DNA of 64,000 nucleotides. Source: a phage. The notes below the pieces were generated by a model. The model did no database searches. It saw nothing but the letters and a program-made list of their open reading frames with translations, and was not told the origin of the DNA. The translations under genes and the position numbers were made by a program. Shown one piece after another: positions 46,337 through 56,629 of the stretch (position 1 is the stretch's first letter; each line of letters begins with the position of its first letter). The stretch is taken from the sequence record NC_111505.1, one strand, 5' to 3'.

Positions 46337-46411
46337 TGGTGGCCCTGGGTGGAATTGAACCACCGTCTGGCGATTATGAGTCGCTTGCTTGAACCTTCCA
46401 GCTACAGGGCC
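46337..46411 (-). tRNA. tRNA-Met (anticodon CAU; initiator, elongator or Ile-lysidine not distinguished)
   Basis: Hand-folded cloverleaf: acceptor GGCCCTG/CAGGGCC, anticodon loop CTCATAA, T-arm GGTGG/TTCAATT/CCACC, CCA encoded. Confidence 0.7.
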
Positions 46412-46412
46412 A

Positions 46413-46488
46413 TGGTGCTGATGGCAGGACTTGAACCTGCAACCTATTGATTACAAATCAATTGCACTGCCAATTGTGCTACATCAGC
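46413..46488 (-). tRNA. tRNA-Thr (anticodon UGU)
   Basis: Acceptor GCTGATG/CATCAGC, D-stem GCAC/GTGC, anticodon stem ATTGA/TCAAT with loop TTTGTAA, T-arm GCAGG/TTCAAGT/CCTGC, CCA encoded. Confidence 0.75.
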
Positions 46489-46492
46489 AAAA

Positions 46493-46591
46493 GGTGCTAG
46501 GTGATGGAATCGAACCATCTATGTATTCAACGACTACCTCGTCTATTTTCAGGATTAAAAATCCTCGCCCTTGCCAAAGGGCTTACCTAGC
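46493..46591 (-). tRNA. atypical tRNA-like element (~97 nt), anticodon ambiguous (possibly UUU)
   Basis: Good acceptor (GCTAGGT/ACCTAGC), D-arm (GCCC/GGGC) and T-arm (GATGG/TTCGATT/CCATC), but anticodon arm is a near-palindrome (AGGATTTTTAATCCT) and about 30 nt lie between anticodon arm and T-arm. Confidence 0.4.
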
Positions 46592-46689
46592 GCAATATGT
46601 TGACCATGTGGCTAGTCGGCGATGACGACTGTAACATTTGATAATCCGGTTCTGCTTCCGGCTTTCGCTTAATTACAAGGTCAACAATG

Positions 46690-46780
46690 TGGCGGAGAGT
46701 AATGGAATCGAACCATCATCGAGTCATCCTCAACGGGACGGTTTTCAAGACCGCTTGAGCACCATTGCTCCCTACCCTCC
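46690..46780 (-). tRNA. tRNA-Ser (anticodon UGA), long variable arm
   Basis: Acceptor GGAGGGT/ACTCTCC, anticodon stem GCGGT/ACCGT with loop CTTGAAA, T-loop TTCGATT, CCA encoded; 91 nt. Confidence 0.65.
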
Positions 46781-46894
46781 TTTATAAATTACACTGATAA
46801 TGACACTGATTTTCGAGCAGTTAGTGACTAGTATAAACGACGATAAACATCAATGCCATTATCTGTATGATTTATGCATTTAAAAATATAAATT

Positions 46895-46981
46895 TGGTGG
46901 GGAGTGGTGGAGTCGAACCACCCGAGTCGCAATGACAATAGATTTACAGTCTACACCGCTACCTCTACGGGATAACTCCCC
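46895..46981 (-). tRNA. tRNA-Tyr (anticodon GUA), long variable arm
   Basis: Acceptor GGGGAGT/ACTCCCC, anticodon loop CTGTAAA, T-arm GGTGG/TTCGACT/CCACC, CCA encoded; 87 nt. Confidence 0.7.
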
Positions 46982-46985
46982 AATT

Positions 46986-47060
46986 TGGCACCCCGTACTG
47001 GACTCGAACCAGTGTCAACGGCTTAGAAGGCCGCTGCTTTATCCACTAAGCTAACAGGGC
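46986..47060 (-). tRNA. tRNA-Arg (anticodon UCU)
   Basis: Acceptor GCCCTGT/ACGGGGT (two G-U), D-stem GCTT/AAGC, anticodon stem GCGGC/GCCGT with loop CTTCTAA, T-arm ACTGG/TTCGAGT/CCAGT, CCA encoded. Confidence 0.7.
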
Positions 47061-49996: not shown

Positions 49997-50551
49997 TTAC
50001 TCACCGCTGTCAATAGCAAAACTCATTGCAATACGGTATGCCTCTTCTAATGGTAAGAGTCTCCCCCACACATCCCAACCGACATCAAACTGCCTGCCAA
50101 ACAACTGCTGTGTGGTTCCGTGAGCATGACCGAACAGTTGGACTGATCCGTGAGGCTTTCTGTTCCACTTTGCAAACTGGTAATGGCTCATACAGATCAA
50201 ATTCTTGTTGTGGCGAAGCTCGTAATAATCTACAACCTCATGACCGAACTCTTTCATAATTCTGACAGTCGTTCTTGTGTCATGGTTACCACGAACAAGA
50301 ATAATATGTCCGTTCAACATATTTAGAACATCTGGAAGCAATTTGTTGATATTCTTATCATTAGTGCACGCAATATCCCCCAAGTGAAACACAGTGTCTG
50401 CAGGTGACACAACAGAGTTCCACTTGGTGATGATTCCCGCATTCATACTGTCAAGATTGTGATCATACTGAGATCTGTGTTTTTGACATGAGTCGAACTC
50501 CATTACCCGCTGGTGGAGAAAGTGTGTGTCGCTTGTTACAAAGTATTTCAT
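49997..50551 (-). CDS. calcineurin-like metallophosphoesterase (candidate RNA 3'-end phosphatase)
   Basis: Motifs DTHF, HLGDIA, GNHD, FGHAHG; real start MKYFVTSD at 50549-50551, 7 nt after the kinase stop. Confidence 0.65.
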   Translation of the reverse strand: MKYFVTSDTHFLHQRVMEFDSCQKHRSQYDHNLDSMNAGIITKWNSVVSPADTVFHLGDIACTNDKNINKLLPDVLNMLNGHIILVRGNHDTRTTVRIMKEFGHEVVDYYELRHNKNLICMSHYQFAKWNRKPHGSVQLFGHAHGTTQQLFGRQFDVGWDVWGRLLPLEEAYRIAMSFAIDSGE

Positions 50552-50558
50552 ACATTCC

Positions 50559-50969
50559 TCATTTAAGTTTAATGCAGTTTTTAAGCTGGCGTTCCATACG
50601 ATCCACAACCCTGTCTGGAACATCATGAATGCTTTTATTACCATGGCGGTTTTCAACCACGATCACGGTATAACTATATCCATGACTGATCGCCATGTCA
50701 ATATATTCTTGCACATATTTTTCTTTTGTAAACGTATTACTTACCACGATACGGTCGTAGCCCATACGCATCATATCTTCTACGTTATCTTTGCACCATT
50801 TTGCTGCAAGTGTTACTTTACTTGCATCCCAATTGTAATTGCCGTCATCGTCGTACCAGAACATATCGTTCTCAAAATGTGGATACAGACCTTCTAAAGA
50901 TAGCGCATTTGCCAGTGTTGATTTGCCAGACCCTGGTAGACCACGCACGATATATAGCATTTTAGACAT
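50559..50969 (-). CDS. polynucleotide 5'-kinase-like P-loop protein (137 aa)
   Basis: Walker A GLPGSGKST; layout resembles T4 Pnk kinase domain (IVVSNTFT..., ...HDVPDRVV...); start ATG 50967-50969 with GGAGAG upstream. Confidence 0.6.
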   Translation of the reverse strand: MSKMLYIVRGLPGSGKSTLANALSLEGLYPHFENDMFWYDDDGNYNWDASKVTLAAKWCKDNVEDMMRMGYDRIVVSNTFTKEKYVQEYIDMAISHGYSYTVIVVENRHGNKSIHDVPDRVVDRMERQLKNCIKLK

Positions 50970-51029
50970 AGTAACTCTCCGTTTTAATTTTAATGATAGT
51001 ATACCTAACTGTTTTGTTAATTTCAAGTG

Positions 51030-51058
51030 TTGACACCAGGTTATTTGTGTGGCAGAAT
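51030..51058 (+). promoter_or_regulatory. candidate promoter for the ligase-like gene
   Basis: TTGACA 51030-51035, 17-nt spacer, weak -10 CAGAAT. Confidence 0.3.
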
Positions 51059-51087
51059 AAAGGGACAAAATGACAAATGAGGAATGT

Positions 51088-52005
51088 ATGATGAAGTATT
51101 TTAATGCAGACGACCTGGTTGACAAAGGTCTTGTAACCAGCAGATATTACCCAGATCTTGGATTAAAGATCTACAAATATGCCAGAAAAGTATTCTACAA
51201 CAATTTATGGCATTTGTCTCCGCGTTTACTAGAGTGCCGAGGCATTGTTGTCGGTAATGAAGGAAATGTTGTGGCATGGCCCTTCACAAAAGTGTTTAAT
51301 TTGGGAGAAAACTCCACCAACCTGCCTGACAATAAACTTGTGACGGCGGTAGAGAAAAAGAACGGATTCCTTGGTGTGGTATCATCTCATAAAGGTGAAC
51401 TATTGTTTTCAACAACCGGGTCTCTTGATTCTCCATATTGTAACCTTGCAAAGGAAACCATCCAGGAGCAATGTGGTAATTTAGATCTCATCAAAAAGGT
51501 TATGGGCCATGAAAACATGACATTCATGTTTGAAATTTGTCACCCTTCAGATCCGCATATTGTTCAGGAAGACCATGGCGCATATTTGATAGGTTGCAGA
51601 TATAACGATTCTGGAATAATGCTACCAGAAGCAGCTTTAGATGGGATTGCCAAATACCTTGGTGCAAAACGTCCTCACACTGTGCGTGAAATTCCGTTCA
51701 GCTATGCAAAAGAATTAGCTGCAGAAACAAGAGGTGAAGGGTATATGATTCGTAAGCCTTACTACCCTTATGATCTGCAGCTGAAGATCAAGTCTCCATA
51801 CTATTTGGCACGGAAGGCCGTAATGAGGGGTAAAGCTTGGAAGATTTGGGATGATGATATCTTTAAACGTATTGACGAAGAGTTTTACGGCATGGTAAAC
51901 TTCATTCGTAACAATTACACAGAAGATGTGTGGAACTGCCTCCTAGAGCAGGAACGCCGTGAGATACTTGACTGCTATTTCCACAACGAGGACTATATGC
52001 AATGA
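51088..52005 (+). CDS. nucleotidyltransferase-type ligase, RNA-ligase-like (start 51070, 51088 or 51091)
   Basis: Ligase motifs I (KKNG), III (FEICHP), IV (EGYMIRK), V (LKIKS); motif IV/V flavour resembles Rnl2-type RNA ligases; divergent from kinase/phosphoesterase pair. Confidence 0.5.
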   Translation: MMKYFNADDLVDKGLVTSRYYPDLGLKIYKYARKVFYNNLWHLSPRLLECRGIVVGNEGNVVAWPFTKVFNLGENSTNLPDNKLVTAVEKKNGFLGVVSSHKGELLFSTTGSLDSPYCNLAKETIQEQCGNLDLIKKVMGHENMTFMFEICHPSDPHIVQEDHGAYLIGCRYNDSGIMLPEAALDGIAKYLGAKRPHTVREIPFSYAKELAAETRGEGYMIRKPYYPYDLQLKIKSPYYLARKAVMRGKAWKIWDDDIFKRIDEEFYGMVNFIRNNYTEDVWNCLLEQERREILDCYFHNEDYMQ

Positions 52006-52352
52006 AGAAGTTGATTGTGTGGCTGGATGACTTGAGAGATCCGTCAAATTATGGGCTCCCAGATGCTCTTTGGCTAAAGAATTCCTCTGAGTTTATGGAT
52101 TTTATTAACGATAAGGGAAAGCTCTACAGGCGCGTTTCTGAGTGGCACATGGACAACGACCTTGGAGAGGTATTTGAAGGGTACGATTGCCTATCTATGC
52201 TGGAGGAAAAATTTGTATTTGGTAAGCCTCCTGTAGTTGACAACGTGAAGATTTTCGTGCATACTTCTAACCCATCAGCTGCTCGTAAATTCATGCTTGC
52301 TGCTGACTCGTTTAAAAAGTTTGGAATAGAGATTAAACAAAACATCTACTGA
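52002..52352 (+). CDS. hypothetical protein with receiver/Rossmann-like residue pattern (116 aa)
   Basis: ORF track; start overlaps ligase stop (ATGA); pattern LIVWLDD ... D ... VHTSNP; no confident family. Confidence 0.3.
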   Translation: MKKLIVWLDDLRDPSNYGLPDALWLKNSSEFMDFINDKGKLYRRVSEWHMDNDLGEVFEGYDCLSMLEEKFVFGKPPVVDNVKIFVHTSNPSAARKFMLAADSFKKFGIEIKQNIY

Positions 52353-52360
52353 GGACACTT

Positions 52361-53122
52361 ATGCGACGACTGATCATTATCTCCGGTGCTGGTTTGAGCG
52401 CTGAATCTGGTATCCCAACTTTCCGATCTGGTGGCACTGCAATGTGGGAGAATTTCAGCATCGATGAGGTGTGTAACATCCACACCTTTGCCAAGAACTA
52501 CTATAAGGTTCATGACTTTTACAATGCACGGCGTGTAGCTCTTGGCAGTGTTGATCCTAACCTTGCACATCTCCGGATCGCTGAGTGGTATTCCCGCTGG
52601 TCTGGTCGTGTGATTAACCTGACCACCAATGTAGATGATTTGCTGGAGCGTGCTGGTGTAAAACATGAAGATATTTTACATGTCCACGGATATTTGCCAG
52701 AAATAGTCTACGAGGATGATGAAGGGAGTAACGTCATTAAAGACATTGGATACTCTGAGGTAGATGCAAGCAAGTATACTTGGGTTAAGCCTAATGTAGT
52801 GTTCTTCGGAGAAGTAGCTCCAAAGTATACAGACATGTATGACCTGTTGACTTCTCTGACGAGCAATGATATGGTTATCCTTGTAGGGTGCTCCAACACA
52901 GTTATCAATTTTAACTGGGAGCTATTCCCTGCCTGTAATAAGGGGACCAAACTGCTGATCGTTAACAAATACGACTCACAGCATTTAGGGGAGAATGGCA
53001 TTTCACGTAGTGACATTTACCAGTATGAGGATCGCGGCATCCCAGTTTGGTTTAACGGGGCTGTTGACGCTTTCTCTGATAAAACATTCATTGACATCGT
53101 AGAAAACTTTATGGAACTGTAA
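52361..53122 (+). CDS. Sir2-family (sirtuin-like) NAD-dependent protein
   Basis: Canonical sirtuin motifs: ISGAGLSAESGIPTFR, TTNVDDLLERAG, HVHG, VVFFGE, ILVGCS; SD GAGGA 5 nt upstream of ATG. Confidence 0.8.
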   Translation: MRRLIIISGAGLSAESGIPTFRSGGTAMWENFSIDEVCNIHTFAKNYYKVHDFYNARRVALGSVDPNLAHLRIAEWYSRWSGRVINLTTNVDDLLERAGVKHEDILHVHGYLPEIVYEDDEGSNVIKDIGYSEVDASKYTWVKPNVVFFGEVAPKYTDMYDLLTSLTSNDMVILVGCSNTVINFNWELFPACNKGTKLLIVNKYDSQHLGENGISRSDIYQYEDRGIPVWFNGAVDAFSDKTFIDIVENFMEL

Positions 53123-53136
53123 GCGGAGGCCTTTTA

Positions 53137-53850
53137 ATGCTGAATACTAAACTGATTGACAACTTGGAAAAACTGTCTCAGCCTGAAAACTACCTTTGGT
53201 CTGCCAACTGGGTGGAAAATTGGAACCGTGTAGCAGCTAAAGTGAAAAAATCATACACACCATTCGAACTTCAGCTGAGTTTCATTGAGGAAGAGTTCAA
53301 TGAAGTTTTGGAAGAGTTGGAGAAAGGTGATGGTGGGGATCATCTCCTAAAAGAGGCCTGCGATCTTCACGTTGTCACAAGTTATGCCGCTTATCTTGTT
53401 AACGATAACCATGAAAAGTGGTCAAACCTGTTTGATAATCCGCGAGGTCTTAAGTTTAAGATCGGTGAATTTTATGATACATTGATCGCTGCGAAAAATA
53501 CCTCTAAGCAAAGAGCGTCTGCTTACCGCTTAGCAGAGTTGTCAACAGCTTTGCTGTTCCAGCTTCGCGGCGATGTGTGCGGGATGATGCGTAAGGTTCT
53601 CAAATCGAATGACAGCAAGTTTGCACGGGTCAACCATCTACGGTATTCACACGGTGCCAGTGCAGATATGCCTGCTGAACAACTCATCGAGTTGGAGATT
53701 AAAGATCTTGAGCGACGCTTTGATGGTCGATATGAAGGTTTTGTTGCTAAGGAAGAATTCTACAACGGAAATAAAGTTATCATATTCCTCGACAGTAAAG
53801 GTAAGATTATGAAGCCTTCAAGCTTCAAGGATGTAACAGAATATATTTAA
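53137..53850 (+). CDS. MazG-like nucleotide pyrophosphohydrolase domain protein (237 aa)
   Basis: ExxE...ExxD-type arrangement (IEEEFNEVLEELEKGD...LLKEACDL); C-terminal half unassigned. Confidence 0.4.
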   Translation: MLNTKLIDNLEKLSQPENYLWSANWVENWNRVAAKVKKSYTPFELQLSFIEEEFNEVLEELEKGDGGDHLLKEACDLHVVTSYAAYLVNDNHEKWSNLFDNPRGLKFKIGEFYDTLIAAKNTSKQRASAYRLAELSTALLFQLRGDVCGMMRKVLKSNDSKFARVNHLRYSHGASADMPAEQLIELEIKDLERRFDGRYEGFVAKEEFYNGNKVIIFLDSKGKIMKPSSFKDVTEYI

Positions 53851-53856
53851 CAACAT

Positions 53857-53886
53857 AGCCGGGGCGATCCCGGCTTTACTTGTTTC
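53857..53886 (+). terminator. rho-independent terminator
   Basis: Hairpin AGCCGGG-GCGAT-CCCGGCT followed by TTACTTGTTT. Confidence 0.5.
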
Positions 53887-53914: not shown

Positions 53915-54223
53915 ATGTACAAGCACTCCAGAGACCTTGAAAACGATGCTGTGTTTGGAGATCAGATGAAAGAATTGGTTAAACTTATAGGTAGGATAGA
54001 GGATAAGTTTGACACTAAGATCTACATCGACAGCAAAGTATTCAACCACAAAATATGGACAAATCTGTGTGTTGGACTACATGGAGATAAGGATGTGGTA
54101 AATTTAGTTGTAATTAAGTTCATAGTGTGGCAGAATAGAACCATAAGTTATTACGATCCGCACCTACTTGTTTACCCGATAAAAGATCTATTAGAGAAGG
54201 AGGACTGCAATGCCGTTATTTAA
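53915..54223 (+). CDS. hypothetical protein (102 aa)
   Basis: ORF track. Confidence 0.3.
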   Translation: MYKHSRDLENDAVFGDQMKELVKLIGRIEDKFDTKIYIDSKVFNHKIWTNLCVGLHGDKDVVNLVVIKFIVWQNRTISYYDPHLLVYPIKDLLEKEDCNAVI

Positions 54224-54479
54224 TCTTGCTAAACCTGTAGAAGCACACCAGTTTGATGGAAGCTCTTCATCAGTATCTGATCTGCAACGGTGGATTGATA
54301 CAGGTGTGTTTACATCGTCACCTGTTCGAACCAGAGATATTCTTCGCATGTGTGAGCTTGTCGAGCCGTTTGGTAACCTTGTCTTGTACCAAGGGGATTG
54401 GTTAGTTGACTTTATGGGAGACTGGTTGGTAATGAGCAAAGAAGAGATGTTTAAAATTTTTAAGGAAGAGGCTGAGTAA
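54210..54479 (+). CDS. hypothetical protein (89 aa)
   Basis: ORF track; stop overlaps ligase start (TAATG). Confidence 0.3.
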   Translation: MPLFNLAKPVEAHQFDGSSSSVSDLQRWIDTGVFTSSPVRTRDILRMCELVEPFGNLVLYQGDWLVDFMGDWLVMSKEEMFKIFKEEAE

Positions 54480-55762
54480 TGCATCAGATCAAAACAACAC
54501 TGTACGCACTGAACAAAGATGGCAGCTACCAACAGTGGAAAGTATTCACGGATGGTGATAAGGTTATCGTAGAGTTTGGCAAGCTTGATGGTAAACTGCA
54601 ATACAAAGAGACGATCTGCACACCTAAGAACGTTGGTCGTGCCAATGAAACTACAGCTGAGCAACAGGCTGAGCTGGAAGCGATCAGTAAGTGGGAAAAA
54701 CAAGTCCGTCTTGGGTATGTTGAAAATATGGAAGATTGCGAGCAGGGTGTTGACCTTTTACCCATGCTGGTGCATGACTACCTGAAGCGTGGAAAGGCAC
54801 TTAAATTACCTTGCTGGATCTTGCGTAAGTTAGATGGCCTTCGTCTACTTGTTGTTTTCCAAAATGGTGAGCCTAAATTTATTTCCCGTGGTAATAAGTC
54901 CTACCCTATTCAAGGAAAGCTTCTGGAGCAACTTCGTTCTTTCCACTTCACCACCGGTATTAAACAGCTCGACGGAGAGATCTATATTCATGGCCTGCCT
55001 CTGCAGAAAATAGTGTCTCTTGCTAAACGGTGGCGCACACAGGAAGAGATTCAGGCCGAGATCGATAAAGACTACGAGGCAGATAAAAAACGCCGTCATG
55101 CCGCAATTAAGGCAGGCTTATCAACATACAAAAACTTCAACAAGGTAGATATTCCTGTTGATGTTGAGCCTGTTCGTGATGATTTGCGTTACGGTGGGTA
55201 CTGTAGCTACGATCTAGAGTATCACATTTTTGATATTCCTAGTGACAAGGTGTGGTGGGATCCAGAAACAGAATCTGGACGCTGCAAGGATCTTATGGAT
55301 GTAGAAGATACCATTACCACTCTGATGCTTGACCATATCAAGGTTGTTGACGCAGAGCTTGCGTACACAGTTGATCATTGCGAAGAATCTGTCGGTGTAT
55401 TCATGTCCGAAGGGTATGAAGGTACTATCATGCGTAACTTCTGTGGTAAATACGAATACGGTCAGCGAACATCTGAAGCATTGAAATGGAAAAAGTTCAA
55501 CGATGCTGAGGTGAAAGTTATTGACGTTGAGAAAGATAAGAATGATGAAGGTGTTCTTATCTGTGTTGACAAGGAAGGTATTGTTGTTAAAATGAAGATG
55601 AAAGGTACGCACGAGGAGCGTAGCTATGACAGGATGCAGGAAATGATCGGCAAGTTTGTCACCTTCAAATATCAAGCAAGGACAGAAGACAACAACTACC
55701 AATTCCCTGTCGGTATCTGCGTCCGAAATGTTAACCCAGACACTTGGGAGGTGCTGGAATAA
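54479..55762 (+). CDS. ATP-dependent DNA ligase (427 aa)
   Basis: Motif I ILRKLDGLR (KxDG), motif III GEIYIHG, motif IV EGYEGTIMR, motif V LKWKKF; C-terminal OB-like region. Confidence 0.65.
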   Translation: MHQIKTTLYALNKDGSYQQWKVFTDGDKVIVEFGKLDGKLQYKETICTPKNVGRANETTAEQQAELEAISKWEKQVRLGYVENMEDCEQGVDLLPMLVHDYLKRGKALKLPCWILRKLDGLRLLVVFQNGEPKFISRGNKSYPIQGKLLEQLRSFHFTTGIKQLDGEIYIHGLPLQKIVSLAKRWRTQEEIQAEIDKDYEADKKRRHAAIKAGLSTYKNFNKVDIPVDVEPVRDDLRYGGYCSYDLEYHIFDIPSDKVWWDPETESGRCKDLMDVEDTITTLMLDHIKVVDAELAYTVDHCEESVGVFMSEGYEGTIMRNFCGKYEYGQRTSEALKWKKFNDAEVKVIDVEKDKNDEGVLICVDKEGIVVKMKMKGTHEERSYDRMQEMIGKFVTFKYQARTEDNNYQFPVGICVRNVNPDTWEVLE

Positions 55763-55912
55763 TTTAGGTATGTTTAGTAGCTAACGGTAGCCAATTGAAT
55801 GAGTGTTTTCAATTGGCACCTGCATATGCCCTGATATTCGCACTGTGCAATATACCCATGCTGTACAGTGTTGTTGATCGGATATGCTATAAGTAGATTG
55901 GAGAGTAAAAAA

Positions 55913-56629
55913 ATGATTAATTTCTTCTTCAATGATAATTTTGCATTTTGGTACAAAGATGGGGAGCTAGTTTGGACAAAGAATCATTATAGAGGCCGAG
56001 GTAAAAATCAACTCTTCATAAAAGCTGGCACAAAAGCTGGTTGTAATGATGCACAAGGGTATGTTATAATCAACTCTCATAAAGGTGGTGATAAGAAGCG
56101 TCATAGAATTATTTACGACATGTTTTATAACTCTTTAACAAAAAACTTTCTTGTCAGGCATTTAAATGATATAAAAGGCCAGGATAATATAGAAAATCTT
56201 TCTATGGGCACCTACAGTGATAACAACAAGGACCGTATAAGAAATAATTTACTCCCGAAAAATAACCCGCACGGTAACTTAGGAGTTTATAAGAAATGTG
56301 GTTTATGGTATGCAGTATATAACACCCTCGAAGGAGATAGGTTTGCTGGGTACTTTAAGACCAAAGATGAGGCTGTAGAGGCAAGAAAACAGCTAGTTTC
56401 AGGTACTTATAAAGGCAAAATACTAAAACTTAATAACACATCTGGGTGTACAGGTGTTAAATGGAGACACGATACTGACAAGTGGCAAGTTCAGATTGCT
56501 GAAAACAGCAAAAGGTATCATTTGGGGCAATACACGGAGTGGTGGGATGCTGTATGCGTCAGAAAATCCGCAGAATATGCAAAACATGATGATTCGTTGG
56601 AAGAGTGGTTTAATCGGAGGTTTAAATGA
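55913..56629 (+). CDS. HNH-AP2 homing endonuclease
   Basis: HNH motif (VRHLNDIKGQDNIENL) followed by two AP2-like modules (GVYKKCGLWYAVY...; TGVKWRHDTDKWQVQIAE...); ATG 55913 with GGAGAG upstream. Confidence 0.7.
   Translation: MINFFFNDNFAFWYKDGELVWTKNHYRGRGKNQLFIKAGTKAGCNDAQGYVIINSHKGGDKKRHRIIYDMFYNSLTKNFLVRHLNDIKGQDNIENLSMGTYSDNNKDRIRNNLLPKNNPHGNLGVYKKCGLWYAVYNTLEGDRFAGYFKTKDEAVEARKQLVSGTYKGKILKLNNTSGCTGVKWRHDTDKWQVQIAENSKRYHLGQYTEWWDAVCVRKSAEYAKHDDSLEEWFNRRFK

Follow-up and report, generated by a model that had tools for sequence, protein, structure and literature searches.

Among the systems described so far, the closest to the locus considered here is the type 2 sirtuin RNA-repair neighbourhood reported by Iyer, Burroughs, Anantharaman and Aravind in section 3.7.3 of their paper (Iyer et al., 2022, Viruses 14:1977; PMC9503650), for which Escherichia phage V5 and Proteus phage Mydo serve as prototypes, and of which a T5-like variant (SP15) with a HAD phosphatase is also described there. 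In that proposal the sirtuin removes 2'-phosphates in the manner of KptA/Tpt1, and its partners open a 2',3'-cyclic phosphate or process ADP-ribose>P. One member of the neighbourhood, the cREC (cyclic-phosphate-processing receiver) protein, was defined as a receiver-like protein that never occurs with histidine kinases, is linked to RNA ligases and to enzymes of nicotinamide adenine dinucleotide (NAD) and ADP-ribose, and is predicted to open cyclic phosphates (Iyer et al., 2021; PMC7824862); it is described as experimentally uncharacterised (Iyer et al., 2022). The published account of the neighbourhood is purely computational, and what is already known is known as a prediction. Here we compare with it a locus in a phage DNA stretch of 64,000 nucleotides (sequence record NC_111505.1; the whole stretch is called the window below), in which a gene for a Sir2-family protein, or sirtuin, lies at positions 52361-53122 in the company of genes for RNA-end enzymes.

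Judged by nucleotide identity, the window belongs to an Escherichia coli phage of the genus Vequintavirus (rV5/FV3-like). Its region 51000-56000 matches the Vequintavirus genomes HMD-6 (98.1% identity) and FV3 (97.1%; taxonomy Vequintavirinae; Vequintavirus), and at least 109 phage records keep the arrangement at 93-98% nucleotide identity, covering at least 80% of that query. The phage is thus of the same genus as the V5 prototype and has the same gene set, with no essential difference: the type 2 set of a T4-like RNA ligase, cREC, nucleotide kinase, sirtuin, MazG and calcineurin-like phosphoesterase is complete within 49997-53850. Added here to the earlier account (Iyer et al., 2022) are the folds, the operon boundaries, the loss of the zinc ribbon from the sirtuin, and a linkage of Sir2, cREC and MazG that is looser than that of a fixed module. 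We read the six genes, with a probability of about 0.45, as an RNA end-healing and sealing kit with NAD-dependent phosphate processing, which would most likely serve to rejoin tRNAs after their cleavage by anticodon nucleases of the host. The genes and the signals around them are as follows (aa, amino acids; nt, nucleotides).

49997-50551, minus strand: metallophosphoesterase, calcineurin-like, 184 aa; Pfam Metallophos and Metallophos_2; PHROG 547 'phosphoesterase', E=5e-51
50559-50969, minus strand: P-loop kinase, polynucleotide 5'-kinase-like, 136 aa, with GLPGSGKST; Pfam AAA_33, 39.3 bits against a cut-off of 27
51030-51058, plus strand: sigma70-like promoter, TTGACA-17-(TG)CAGAAT, 12 nt 5' of the RNA ligase ATG; consensus match only
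51070-52005, plus strand: Rnl1-type (T4) RNA ligase, 311 aa; Pfam RNA_lig_T4_1, E=8.3e-15, 55.7 bits against a cut-off of 28.3; PHROG 562, E=1.8e-66
52002-52352, plus strand: cREC protein, 116 aa; Pfam PF20274
52361-53122, plus strand: sirtuin without zinc ribbon, 253 aa; Pfam SIR2 PF02146
53137-53850, plus strand: MazG-like all-alpha NTP pyrophosphohydrolase, 237 aa; MazG/dimeric-dUTPase superfamily
53857-53875, plus strand: intrinsic-terminator-like hairpin AGCCGGGGCGATCCCGGCT with a T-rich tail, directly 3' of the MazG-like stop; consensus match only

Four of these genes appear, from their spacing and from the signals that flank them, to form one transcription unit, rnl1-cREC-sir2-mazG-like, running from the promoter to the terminator. 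The rnl1 stop and the cREC start overlap by 4 nt (ATGA) and the two following gaps measure 8 and 14 nt, while the consensus scan gave 10/12 matches plus an extended -10 TG for the promoter-like site and 8 pairs, 6 of them G-C, for the terminator-like hairpin, which is identical in HMD-6. The kinase and metallophosphoesterase genes run divergently from the rnl1 unit. A first-pass annotation, made from the sequence, had singled out the last three cistrons of the unit as a co-transcribed module with a possible host-takeover or counter-defence role. The three open reading frames (ORFs) lie where it had placed them (52002-52352, 52361-53122 and 53137-53850, all on the plus strand; 116, 253 and 237 aa), an observation that is correct and well above chance, and their co-transcription is consistent with the tight junctions, the promoter-like site and the terminator-like hairpin. 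The module as drawn began at 52002, however, so that the overlapping Rnl1 gene, the divergent kinase and the metallophosphoesterase were missed; the RNA-repair block that makes up the functional unit has six genes and not three, with the MazG-like protein as its loosest member. The accompanying remark that the function is not readable from sequence was too pessimistic, a specific contextual prediction having been published (Iyer et al., 2022).

It is the presence of Rnl1, the kinase and the metallophosphoesterase that reframes the module as one of RNA end-healing and sealing, and thus of defence against anticodon nucleases. The translation of the metallophosphoesterase shows all the usual motifs (DTH, GD, GNHD and GHAHG), which makes the protein a candidate enzyme for healing 2',3'-cyclic phosphate or 3'-phosphate ends. 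The kinase also matches Zeta_toxin in Pfam and PHROG 505 'polynucleotide kinase' (E=3e-10), and it is annotated in phage HMD-6 as a 3'-phosphatase 5'-polynucleotide kinase; PDB sequence searches with the kinase and with Rnl1 gave no match. With the T4 pair Pnkp and Rnl1, which counters PrrC, the locus has in common an Rnl1-family ligase, a P-loop 5'-kinase with a GxPGSGKST loop, and the logic of healing followed by sealing. In the window, however, the phosphatase is a separate metallophosphoesterase and not a HAD domain fused to the kinase, and cREC, the sirtuin and the MazG-like protein are extras without a T4 counterpart. Pnkp/Hen1 from Clostridium thermocellum likewise unites kinase, dinuclear metallophosphoesterase and ligase, but in the window these activities sit on separate proteins, a Hen1 methyltransferase is absent and the ligase is of a different family. 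Phosphoesterases of this kind can reportedly open 2',3'-cyclic phosphates to yield 2'-phosphate products, a result ascribed to Keppetipola and Shuman in 2007.

The sirtuin matches the Pfam SIR2 family over positions 1-178 of the 180 in the profile (E=1.1e-26; 94.3 bits against a cut-off of 24). All the Sir2 motifs quoted in the first-pass annotation are found in it, namely GAGLSAESGIPTFR at residues 9-22, TTNVDDLLERAG at 88-99, HVHG at 107-110 and VVFFGE at 146-151, and its key residues are GAG 9-11, Y54/R57 (the YxxR pair), N90/D92, H109 and FGE 149-151. In an alignment of the clade, made up of 32 phage homologues of 46-98% identity, the elements GAGxS...SGxxxFR, TTNVDD (with N90 and D92), H109-G110, KPNVVFFGE and Y54-x-x-R57 are conserved at 90% or more or invariant, the catalytic His being invariant throughout. 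Loss of the catalytic His/Asn had been named beforehand as a finding that would speak against the annotation; H109 and N90 are both kept. Since the NAD-binding and catalytic residues are near-invariant among the 32 homologues, the sirtuin is very probably an active NAD-using enzyme.

The substrate of such an enzyme could be protein. By PDB sequence search the nearest solved relatives are the class III sirtuins SIRT5 (human) and CobB (E. coli), with E values of about 5e-21 to 7e-21; in the HMMER alignment H109 falls on SIRT5 H158, and FY54NAR57R on FY102HYR105R, which holds the class III pair Y102/R105. An ordinary lysine deacylase of the CobB/SIRT5 type might thus reset the acetylation or succinylation of host or phage proteins, such as the active-site lysines of the flanking ligases or metabolic enzymes, and the position of its gene in the repair block would then reflect shared expression timing, not chemistry. 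Besides the PDB matches, this is favoured by the top NCBIfam models, which are NAD-dependent protein deacylases, by the conservation of GAGxS, N90/D92, H109, FGE and the desuccinylase-type YxxR, and by the genomic setting: in most relatives Sir2 is flanked by the kinase gene and, immediately downstream, by the gene for an ATP-dependent DNA ligase, and the sirtuin clade is also found away from any RNA ligase. However, the NCBIfam scores are far under the curated cut-offs (120.9 bits against 243 for the best model, NF001753; 102.3 against 320 for NF040867, CobB), and the sirtuin is for this reason not a CobB equivalog. It also departs from CobB and SIRT5 in having no zinc ribbon, with a small domain cut to about 38 residues, and in its substrate loop, where the canonical GTSxxVYP is replaced by the clade-specific GCSNxVINFNWELFP, and its gene is repeatedly linked to phosphate-processing partners (cREC, HAD_SAK, Metallophos and the kinase). 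On balance we regard a plain deacylase as possible but rather unlikely.

The zinc ribbon helps to form the peptide-binding cleft of canonical sirtuins, and the YxxR motif is known from structural work as the anion-binding pair of SIRT5 and CobB. In the window's sirtuin the 38 residues between H109 and F148 contain 0 Cys, and the sole cysteines are at positions 38, 177 and 192. A wider search against 1.84 billion cluster representatives returned 147 new relatives among the 150 listed, of which 131 were parsable; a compact CxxC...[IV]GY...CxxC ribbon is found in 84/131 of them, and 40/131 have at most one Cys in the segment. The ribbon-less forms cluster near the phage sirtuin (15/20 in the top 25 listed relatives versus 3/21 in the last 25), and this concentration among the nearest relatives indicates that ribbon loss is a derived feature of the phage clade, which keeps an embedded D[IV]GY motif despite the loss of all four cysteines. 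In the wider subfamily (P0194, P0205, P0213 and others) the ribbon is itself unusually compact, at about 35-40 residues, with the pattern CxxC-x5-6-[IV]GY-...-CxxC. The loss of the ribbon and the remodelled VINFNWELFP loop fit a substrate other than a peptide, the retained YxxR could bind phosphate, and together the three features would agree with a substrate that is both non-peptide and anionic.

The likeness to KptA/Tpt1 would be one of functional analogy. In the proposed reaction, common to both, a 2'-phosphate is taken off RNA at the expense of NAD+ and leaves as ADP-ribose 1'',2''-cyclic phosphate; the folds are unrelated, KptA/Tpt1 having the ADP-ribosyltransferase (ART) fold and the window's protein the sirtuin Rossmann fold. 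The sirtuin matches no KptA family in Pfam or NCBIfam, its family being SIR2 and not the ART fold with its R-H-R-R tetrad. ADP-ribosyltransferase activity is on record for some sirtuins (discussed in Iyer et al., 2022), and the ribbon loss and altered substrate loop, which suggest a non-canonical substrate, could be read in that sense: the enzyme would be a macromolecular ADP-ribosyltransferase that tags host proteins or nucleic-acid ends, comparable with T4 Alt/Mod and SirTM, with cREC or the phosphoesterase as eraser. What makes this improbable is that no Macro domain or other known ADP-ribosyl hydrolase, the hallmark of such sirtuin systems (Iyer et al., 2022), is adjacent, and that the catalytic His required for the second step of deacylation, or for attack by the 2'-OH, is invariant.

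A further possibility, and the one put forward in the first-pass annotation, is that the Sir2 and MazG-like proteins are a counter-defence or host-takeover module that destroys or reshapes NAD+ or the nucleotide second messengers of systems such as Thoeris, DSR and CBASS. In its favour, the substrates of both enzymes are of the nucleotide type, one predicted transcript carries sir2 together with the cREC and MazG-like genes, it has been suggested that cREC might process molecules of the cyclic ADP-ribose type (Iyer et al., 2021; PMC7824862), and a distant cREC locus (L015) also has a MazG-domain neighbour. With the defence effectors ThsA, DSR1/2, SIR2-HerA and SIR2-pAgo the window's sirtuin has in common the SIR2 superfamily, the use of NAD and the lack of a zinc ribbon, but it is phage-encoded, stands alone at 253 aa without a sensor domain and has class III affinity, and a search of PADLOC-DB gave no match at E<=0.01 for the sirtuin, cREC or the MazG-like protein. 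An identity as a defence-type Sir2 was rejected on the PADLOC result, and the framing of the protein as an effector-like NADase fails on the same result and on its closest solved relatives, SIRT5 and CobB; the protein is of the class III sirtuin type and not an NADase of the ThsA or DSR type. Moreover, an NADase made by the phage would deplete what its own metabolism needs, the stretch of FV3 inspected (60-122 kb) has no annotated genes for NAD salvage, the conserved partners are RNA-end enzymes, and the MazG-like gene separates from Sir2 in relatives. A module acting on NAD or messengers is for us a poor prospect; a counter-defence role as such is plausible and probably right, with the qualification that the class of defence had been misplaced, the partners pointing to RNA ends and not to Thoeris, DSR or CBASS signalling.

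The cREC protein, for its part, had been called receiver-like but of unknown fold, and the first half of the description stands. It matches Pfam PF20274 with 53.3 bits against a cut-off of 27, as do all but one of 54 homologues, its predicted model shows a receiver (CheY-like) fold, and its aspartate pocket looks complete: D9/D10 after strand 1 and D51 with D53 after strand 3 are invariant or nearly so in the alignment, and the invariant HTSNP that follows strand 4 contains T88. The window region holds no histidine kinase, and the neighbours of cREC in the related loci L001-L013 are Rnl1, the P-loop kinase, Metallophos and Sir2; we place it with the RNA-end enzymes. In more distant cREC loci from IMG/VR (L014-L018) the neighbours are nearly without Pfam matches, apart from the MazG-domain protein of L015 and an SNF2 helicase, and these loci add nothing to the context. 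Bacterial 'cREC' loci (L020-L028) were not used: their identity is 25-38%, they occur in unrelated settings beside a sulfatase-modifying enzyme, a peptidase, DnaB or a histidine kinase, and several of these weak matches, for example that in L027 beside a HATPase_c gene, are probably ordinary receiver domains.

To trace the genes elsewhere, loci were fetched from IMG/VR and searched with phmmer and profiles. Phages with genomes of about 145 kb (L003-L008, refetched as six of L052-L058 and L076), whose proteins are only 55-64% identical to those of the window, have the genes co-linear on one strand in the order orf102, Metallophos, Rnl1, cREC, kinase, Sir2, DNA ligase and orf89, followed further on by the MazG-like gene. 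Among 51 Sir2 loci, a set that includes many near-identical isolates and whose counts are not independent, 13 lie inside an RNA-repair block, 8 of them with cREC within 6 kb, while 24 are from T5-like genomes of 104-122 kb and 14 are in other contexts. In the T5-like phages (L029 6143-7925, Erwinia phage KEY; L032-L051, L056, L065, L069 and L072 from IMG/VR) Sir2 stands beside a HAD 'Swiss-army-knife' phosphatase (Pfam HAD_SAK_2, seen in phage KEY), which is another family of RNA-end phosphatases, and a conserved small ORF of 118-121 aa adjoins it upstream. That this ORF might be a diverged cREC was considered and rejected, the hhalign probability being at most 0.5%. Copies of Sir2 that are unlinked to repair genes occur in 150-kb and jumbo phages, where the neighbours are mostly unannotatable and one locus has an arginase. 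In one jumbo phage of 279 kb (L081, 5721-7198) the Sir2 homologue is flanked by DUF4326 and nucleoside 2-deoxyribosyltransferase-like proteins, an NAD/nucleotide context different from the RNA-repair one.

The case for membership in the set is weakest for the MazG-like protein. The name given to it in the first-pass annotation is borne out by PHROG 671 'nucleotide pyrophosphohydrolase' (E=5e-22), by the fold and by the metal motifs: the predicted model shows a four-helix bundle with EExxE...ExxD motifs and a C-terminal alpha/beta extension of about 75 aa, and the EExxE/ExxD metal-binding signature is invariant in the homologues. Pfam gave no match at E<=0.01, including the families MazG, PRA-PH and dUTPase_2, PDB searches with the single sequence and with a profile gave none either, and a precomputed PF01503 match is found in a few homologues of 52-55% identity; from the dimeric dUTPases and MazG proteins it thus differs in having no significant Pfam MazG/dUTPase match and in its additional C-terminal domain. 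It may scavenge ADP-ribose derivatives in the manner of a Nudix enzyme, or it may be an enzyme of dUTPase type that serves the dNTP pool and in this genus merely shares the transcript; we take the second to be at least as likely as the first. That it works independently of Sir2 and cREC, as a phage dUTPase or another dNTP-pool sanitiser for DNA replication, has about even odds in our judgement. The invariant metal signature and a position 3' of the DNA ligase that is constant regardless of where Sir2 lies both speak for it, as does the gene content of FV3, which has ThyX and ribonucleotide reductases and no annotated dUTPase in the inspected 60-122 kb stretch. On the other side, in Vequintavirus the gene lies 14 nt from sir2 and is co-transcribed with it by the consensus signals, MazG is listed as a recurrent member of the neighbourhood and a pyrophosphatase (Nudix) fills the analogous place in the jumbo-phage version (both Iyer et al., 2022), and the confidence of the model is just moderate, with a predicted local distance difference test score (pLDDT) of 70.

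The gene identities, folds, conserved catalytic residues, operon-like layout and synteny across several phage genera are the observations on which the inferred course of an NAD-dependent RNA repair, that proposed by Iyer et al. (2022), would build. Host anticodon nucleases would leave 2',3'-cyclic phosphate and 5'-OH ends, of which the kinase would phosphorylate the latter, and the metallophosphoesterase, cREC or both would open the former, cREC by aspartyl-phosphate chemistry of the receiver/HAD type. Related dinuclear phosphoesterases can yield 2'-phosphate products. Where a 2'-phosphate persists, the zinc-less sirtuin would move ADP-ribose from NAD+ onto it as KptA/Tpt1 does, with release of nicotinamide, and in a second step, by way of the invariant His, would release ADP-ribose 1'',2''-cyclic phosphate, which cREC may linearise; Rnl1 would then seal the break. 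In T4 Pnkp a phosphatase with an Asp nucleophile attacks RNA>p by way of a phosphoaspartyl intermediate, which supports the opening step as a precedent for a receiver-type Asp pocket such as that of cREC. In its most specific form, in which the sirtuin is an RNA 2'-phosphotransferase of Tpt1/KptA chemistry whose YxxR pocket holds the 2'-phosphate, cREC is a receiver-type aspartyl-phosphate cyclic phosphodiesterase, and the two make up an NAD-dependent branch of tRNA repair that defeats anticodon nucleases, the proposal is tentative, and we hold it to be doubtful as a whole.

Several observations weigh against reading the six genes as an NAD-dependent repair kit. The T4 paradigm of Pnkp and Rnl1 needs no removal of a 2'-phosphate. 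By sequence the sirtuin is nearest to genuine protein deacylases, of which it keeps every catalytic residue, the YxxR included. As to linkage, no RNA ligase, kinase or cREC is found within 6 kb of Sir2 in the 24 T5-like loci, and five of the repair blocks that hold Sir2 have no cREC. In four contigs of 97-153 kb, three of them about 150 kb (L009 and L011-L013), a block of cREC, Metallophos, DNA ligase and MazG-like, with or without Rnl1 and the kinase, is separated by about 33 kb from Sir2 (L059-L062). Sir2 is, then, linked to RNA-end enzymes frequently and not obligatorily. The MazG-like gene tracks the DNA ligase and not Sir2, lying a few genes 3' of the ligase in every related locus examined, whether Sir2 is adjacent, missing from the locus or 33 kb off, and the best fold match of its product is to dUTPases. 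The promoter and terminator calls are matches to consensus sequences only, and a search of the literature for biochemical or genetic tests of the sirtuin, cREC and the MazG-like protein found none, its coverage being incomplete.

Downstream of the terminator-like hairpin and, on the other side, beyond the divergent genes, the window contains further features, none of which is part of the four-gene unit.

46337-47060, minus strand: tRNA cluster, Met-CAT, Thr-TGT, an odd 99-nt tRNA-like gene, Ser-TGA, Tyr-GTA and Arg-TCT; ARAGORN; Rfam tRNA above gathering score
53915-54223, plus strand: small ORF of 102 aa; PHROG 7684, 'unknown function'
54210-54479, plus strand: small ORF of 89 aa; PHROG 14585, 'unknown function'
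54479-55762, plus strand: ATP-dependent DNA ligase, 427 aa; Pfam DNA_ligase_A_M and DNA_ligase_OB_2; PHROG 114

The two small ORFs are syntenic with the repair/DNA-ligase block in the loci L003-L008 and L052-L076, and in distant relatives orf102 sits just 5' of the phosphoesterase and orf89 just 3' of the DNA ligase. Between the DNA ligase and lysozyme genes of the window lies an ORF for an HNH homing endonuclease (55868-56629, plus strand; PHROG 99, E=5e-37). FV3 has no ORF at the matching position and has its HNH genes elsewhere, which marks the ORF as a mobile insertion that varies between close relatives. The GC skew flips its sign at about 50000-52000, from about -0.13 to about +0.14, and the flip coincides with the point at which the minus-strand kinase and phosphoesterase genes diverge from the plus-strand rnl1 operon. 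This point is the border between a minus-strand block ending in spanin and terminase genes and a plus-strand block of nucleic-acid metabolism.

The tRNA cluster lies about 4 kb from the RNA-repair block, as context outside the operon, and the phage may both replace and repair tRNAs. Its odd member (46493-46591, minus strand; 97-99 nt) is absent from the annotation of FV3 and HMD-6. ARAGORN assigns it no anticodon and gives a 4-base 'atcc', and Rfam tRNA scores it at 37.5 bits against a gathering score of 29. At minimum free energy it folds into a cloverleaf whose D stem has 6 bp and whose extra arm is long (z = -4.0). Taking the anticodon arm as a 4-bp stem that carries a 7-nt loop would give the anticodon UUU (Lys). 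The tRNA-Lys with UUU is the classic target of the anticodon nucleases PrrC and PARIS.

The value of the locus is that of a clean, small and testable six-gene system in an E. coli phage, and not that of a new discovery; a sirtuin acting as a 2'-phosphotransferase has been published as a hypothesis and would be new biochemistry if shown. Should the hypothesis be right, a sirtuin would act on RNA instead of protein and a receiver domain would be an enzyme instead of a signalling switch, and the known scope of two very large superfamilies would be widened. Phages of the rV5-like and T5-like groups are common candidates for phage therapy, and, if the reading is true, both would carry an NAD-dependent tRNA-repair route against the anticodon nucleases of their hosts.

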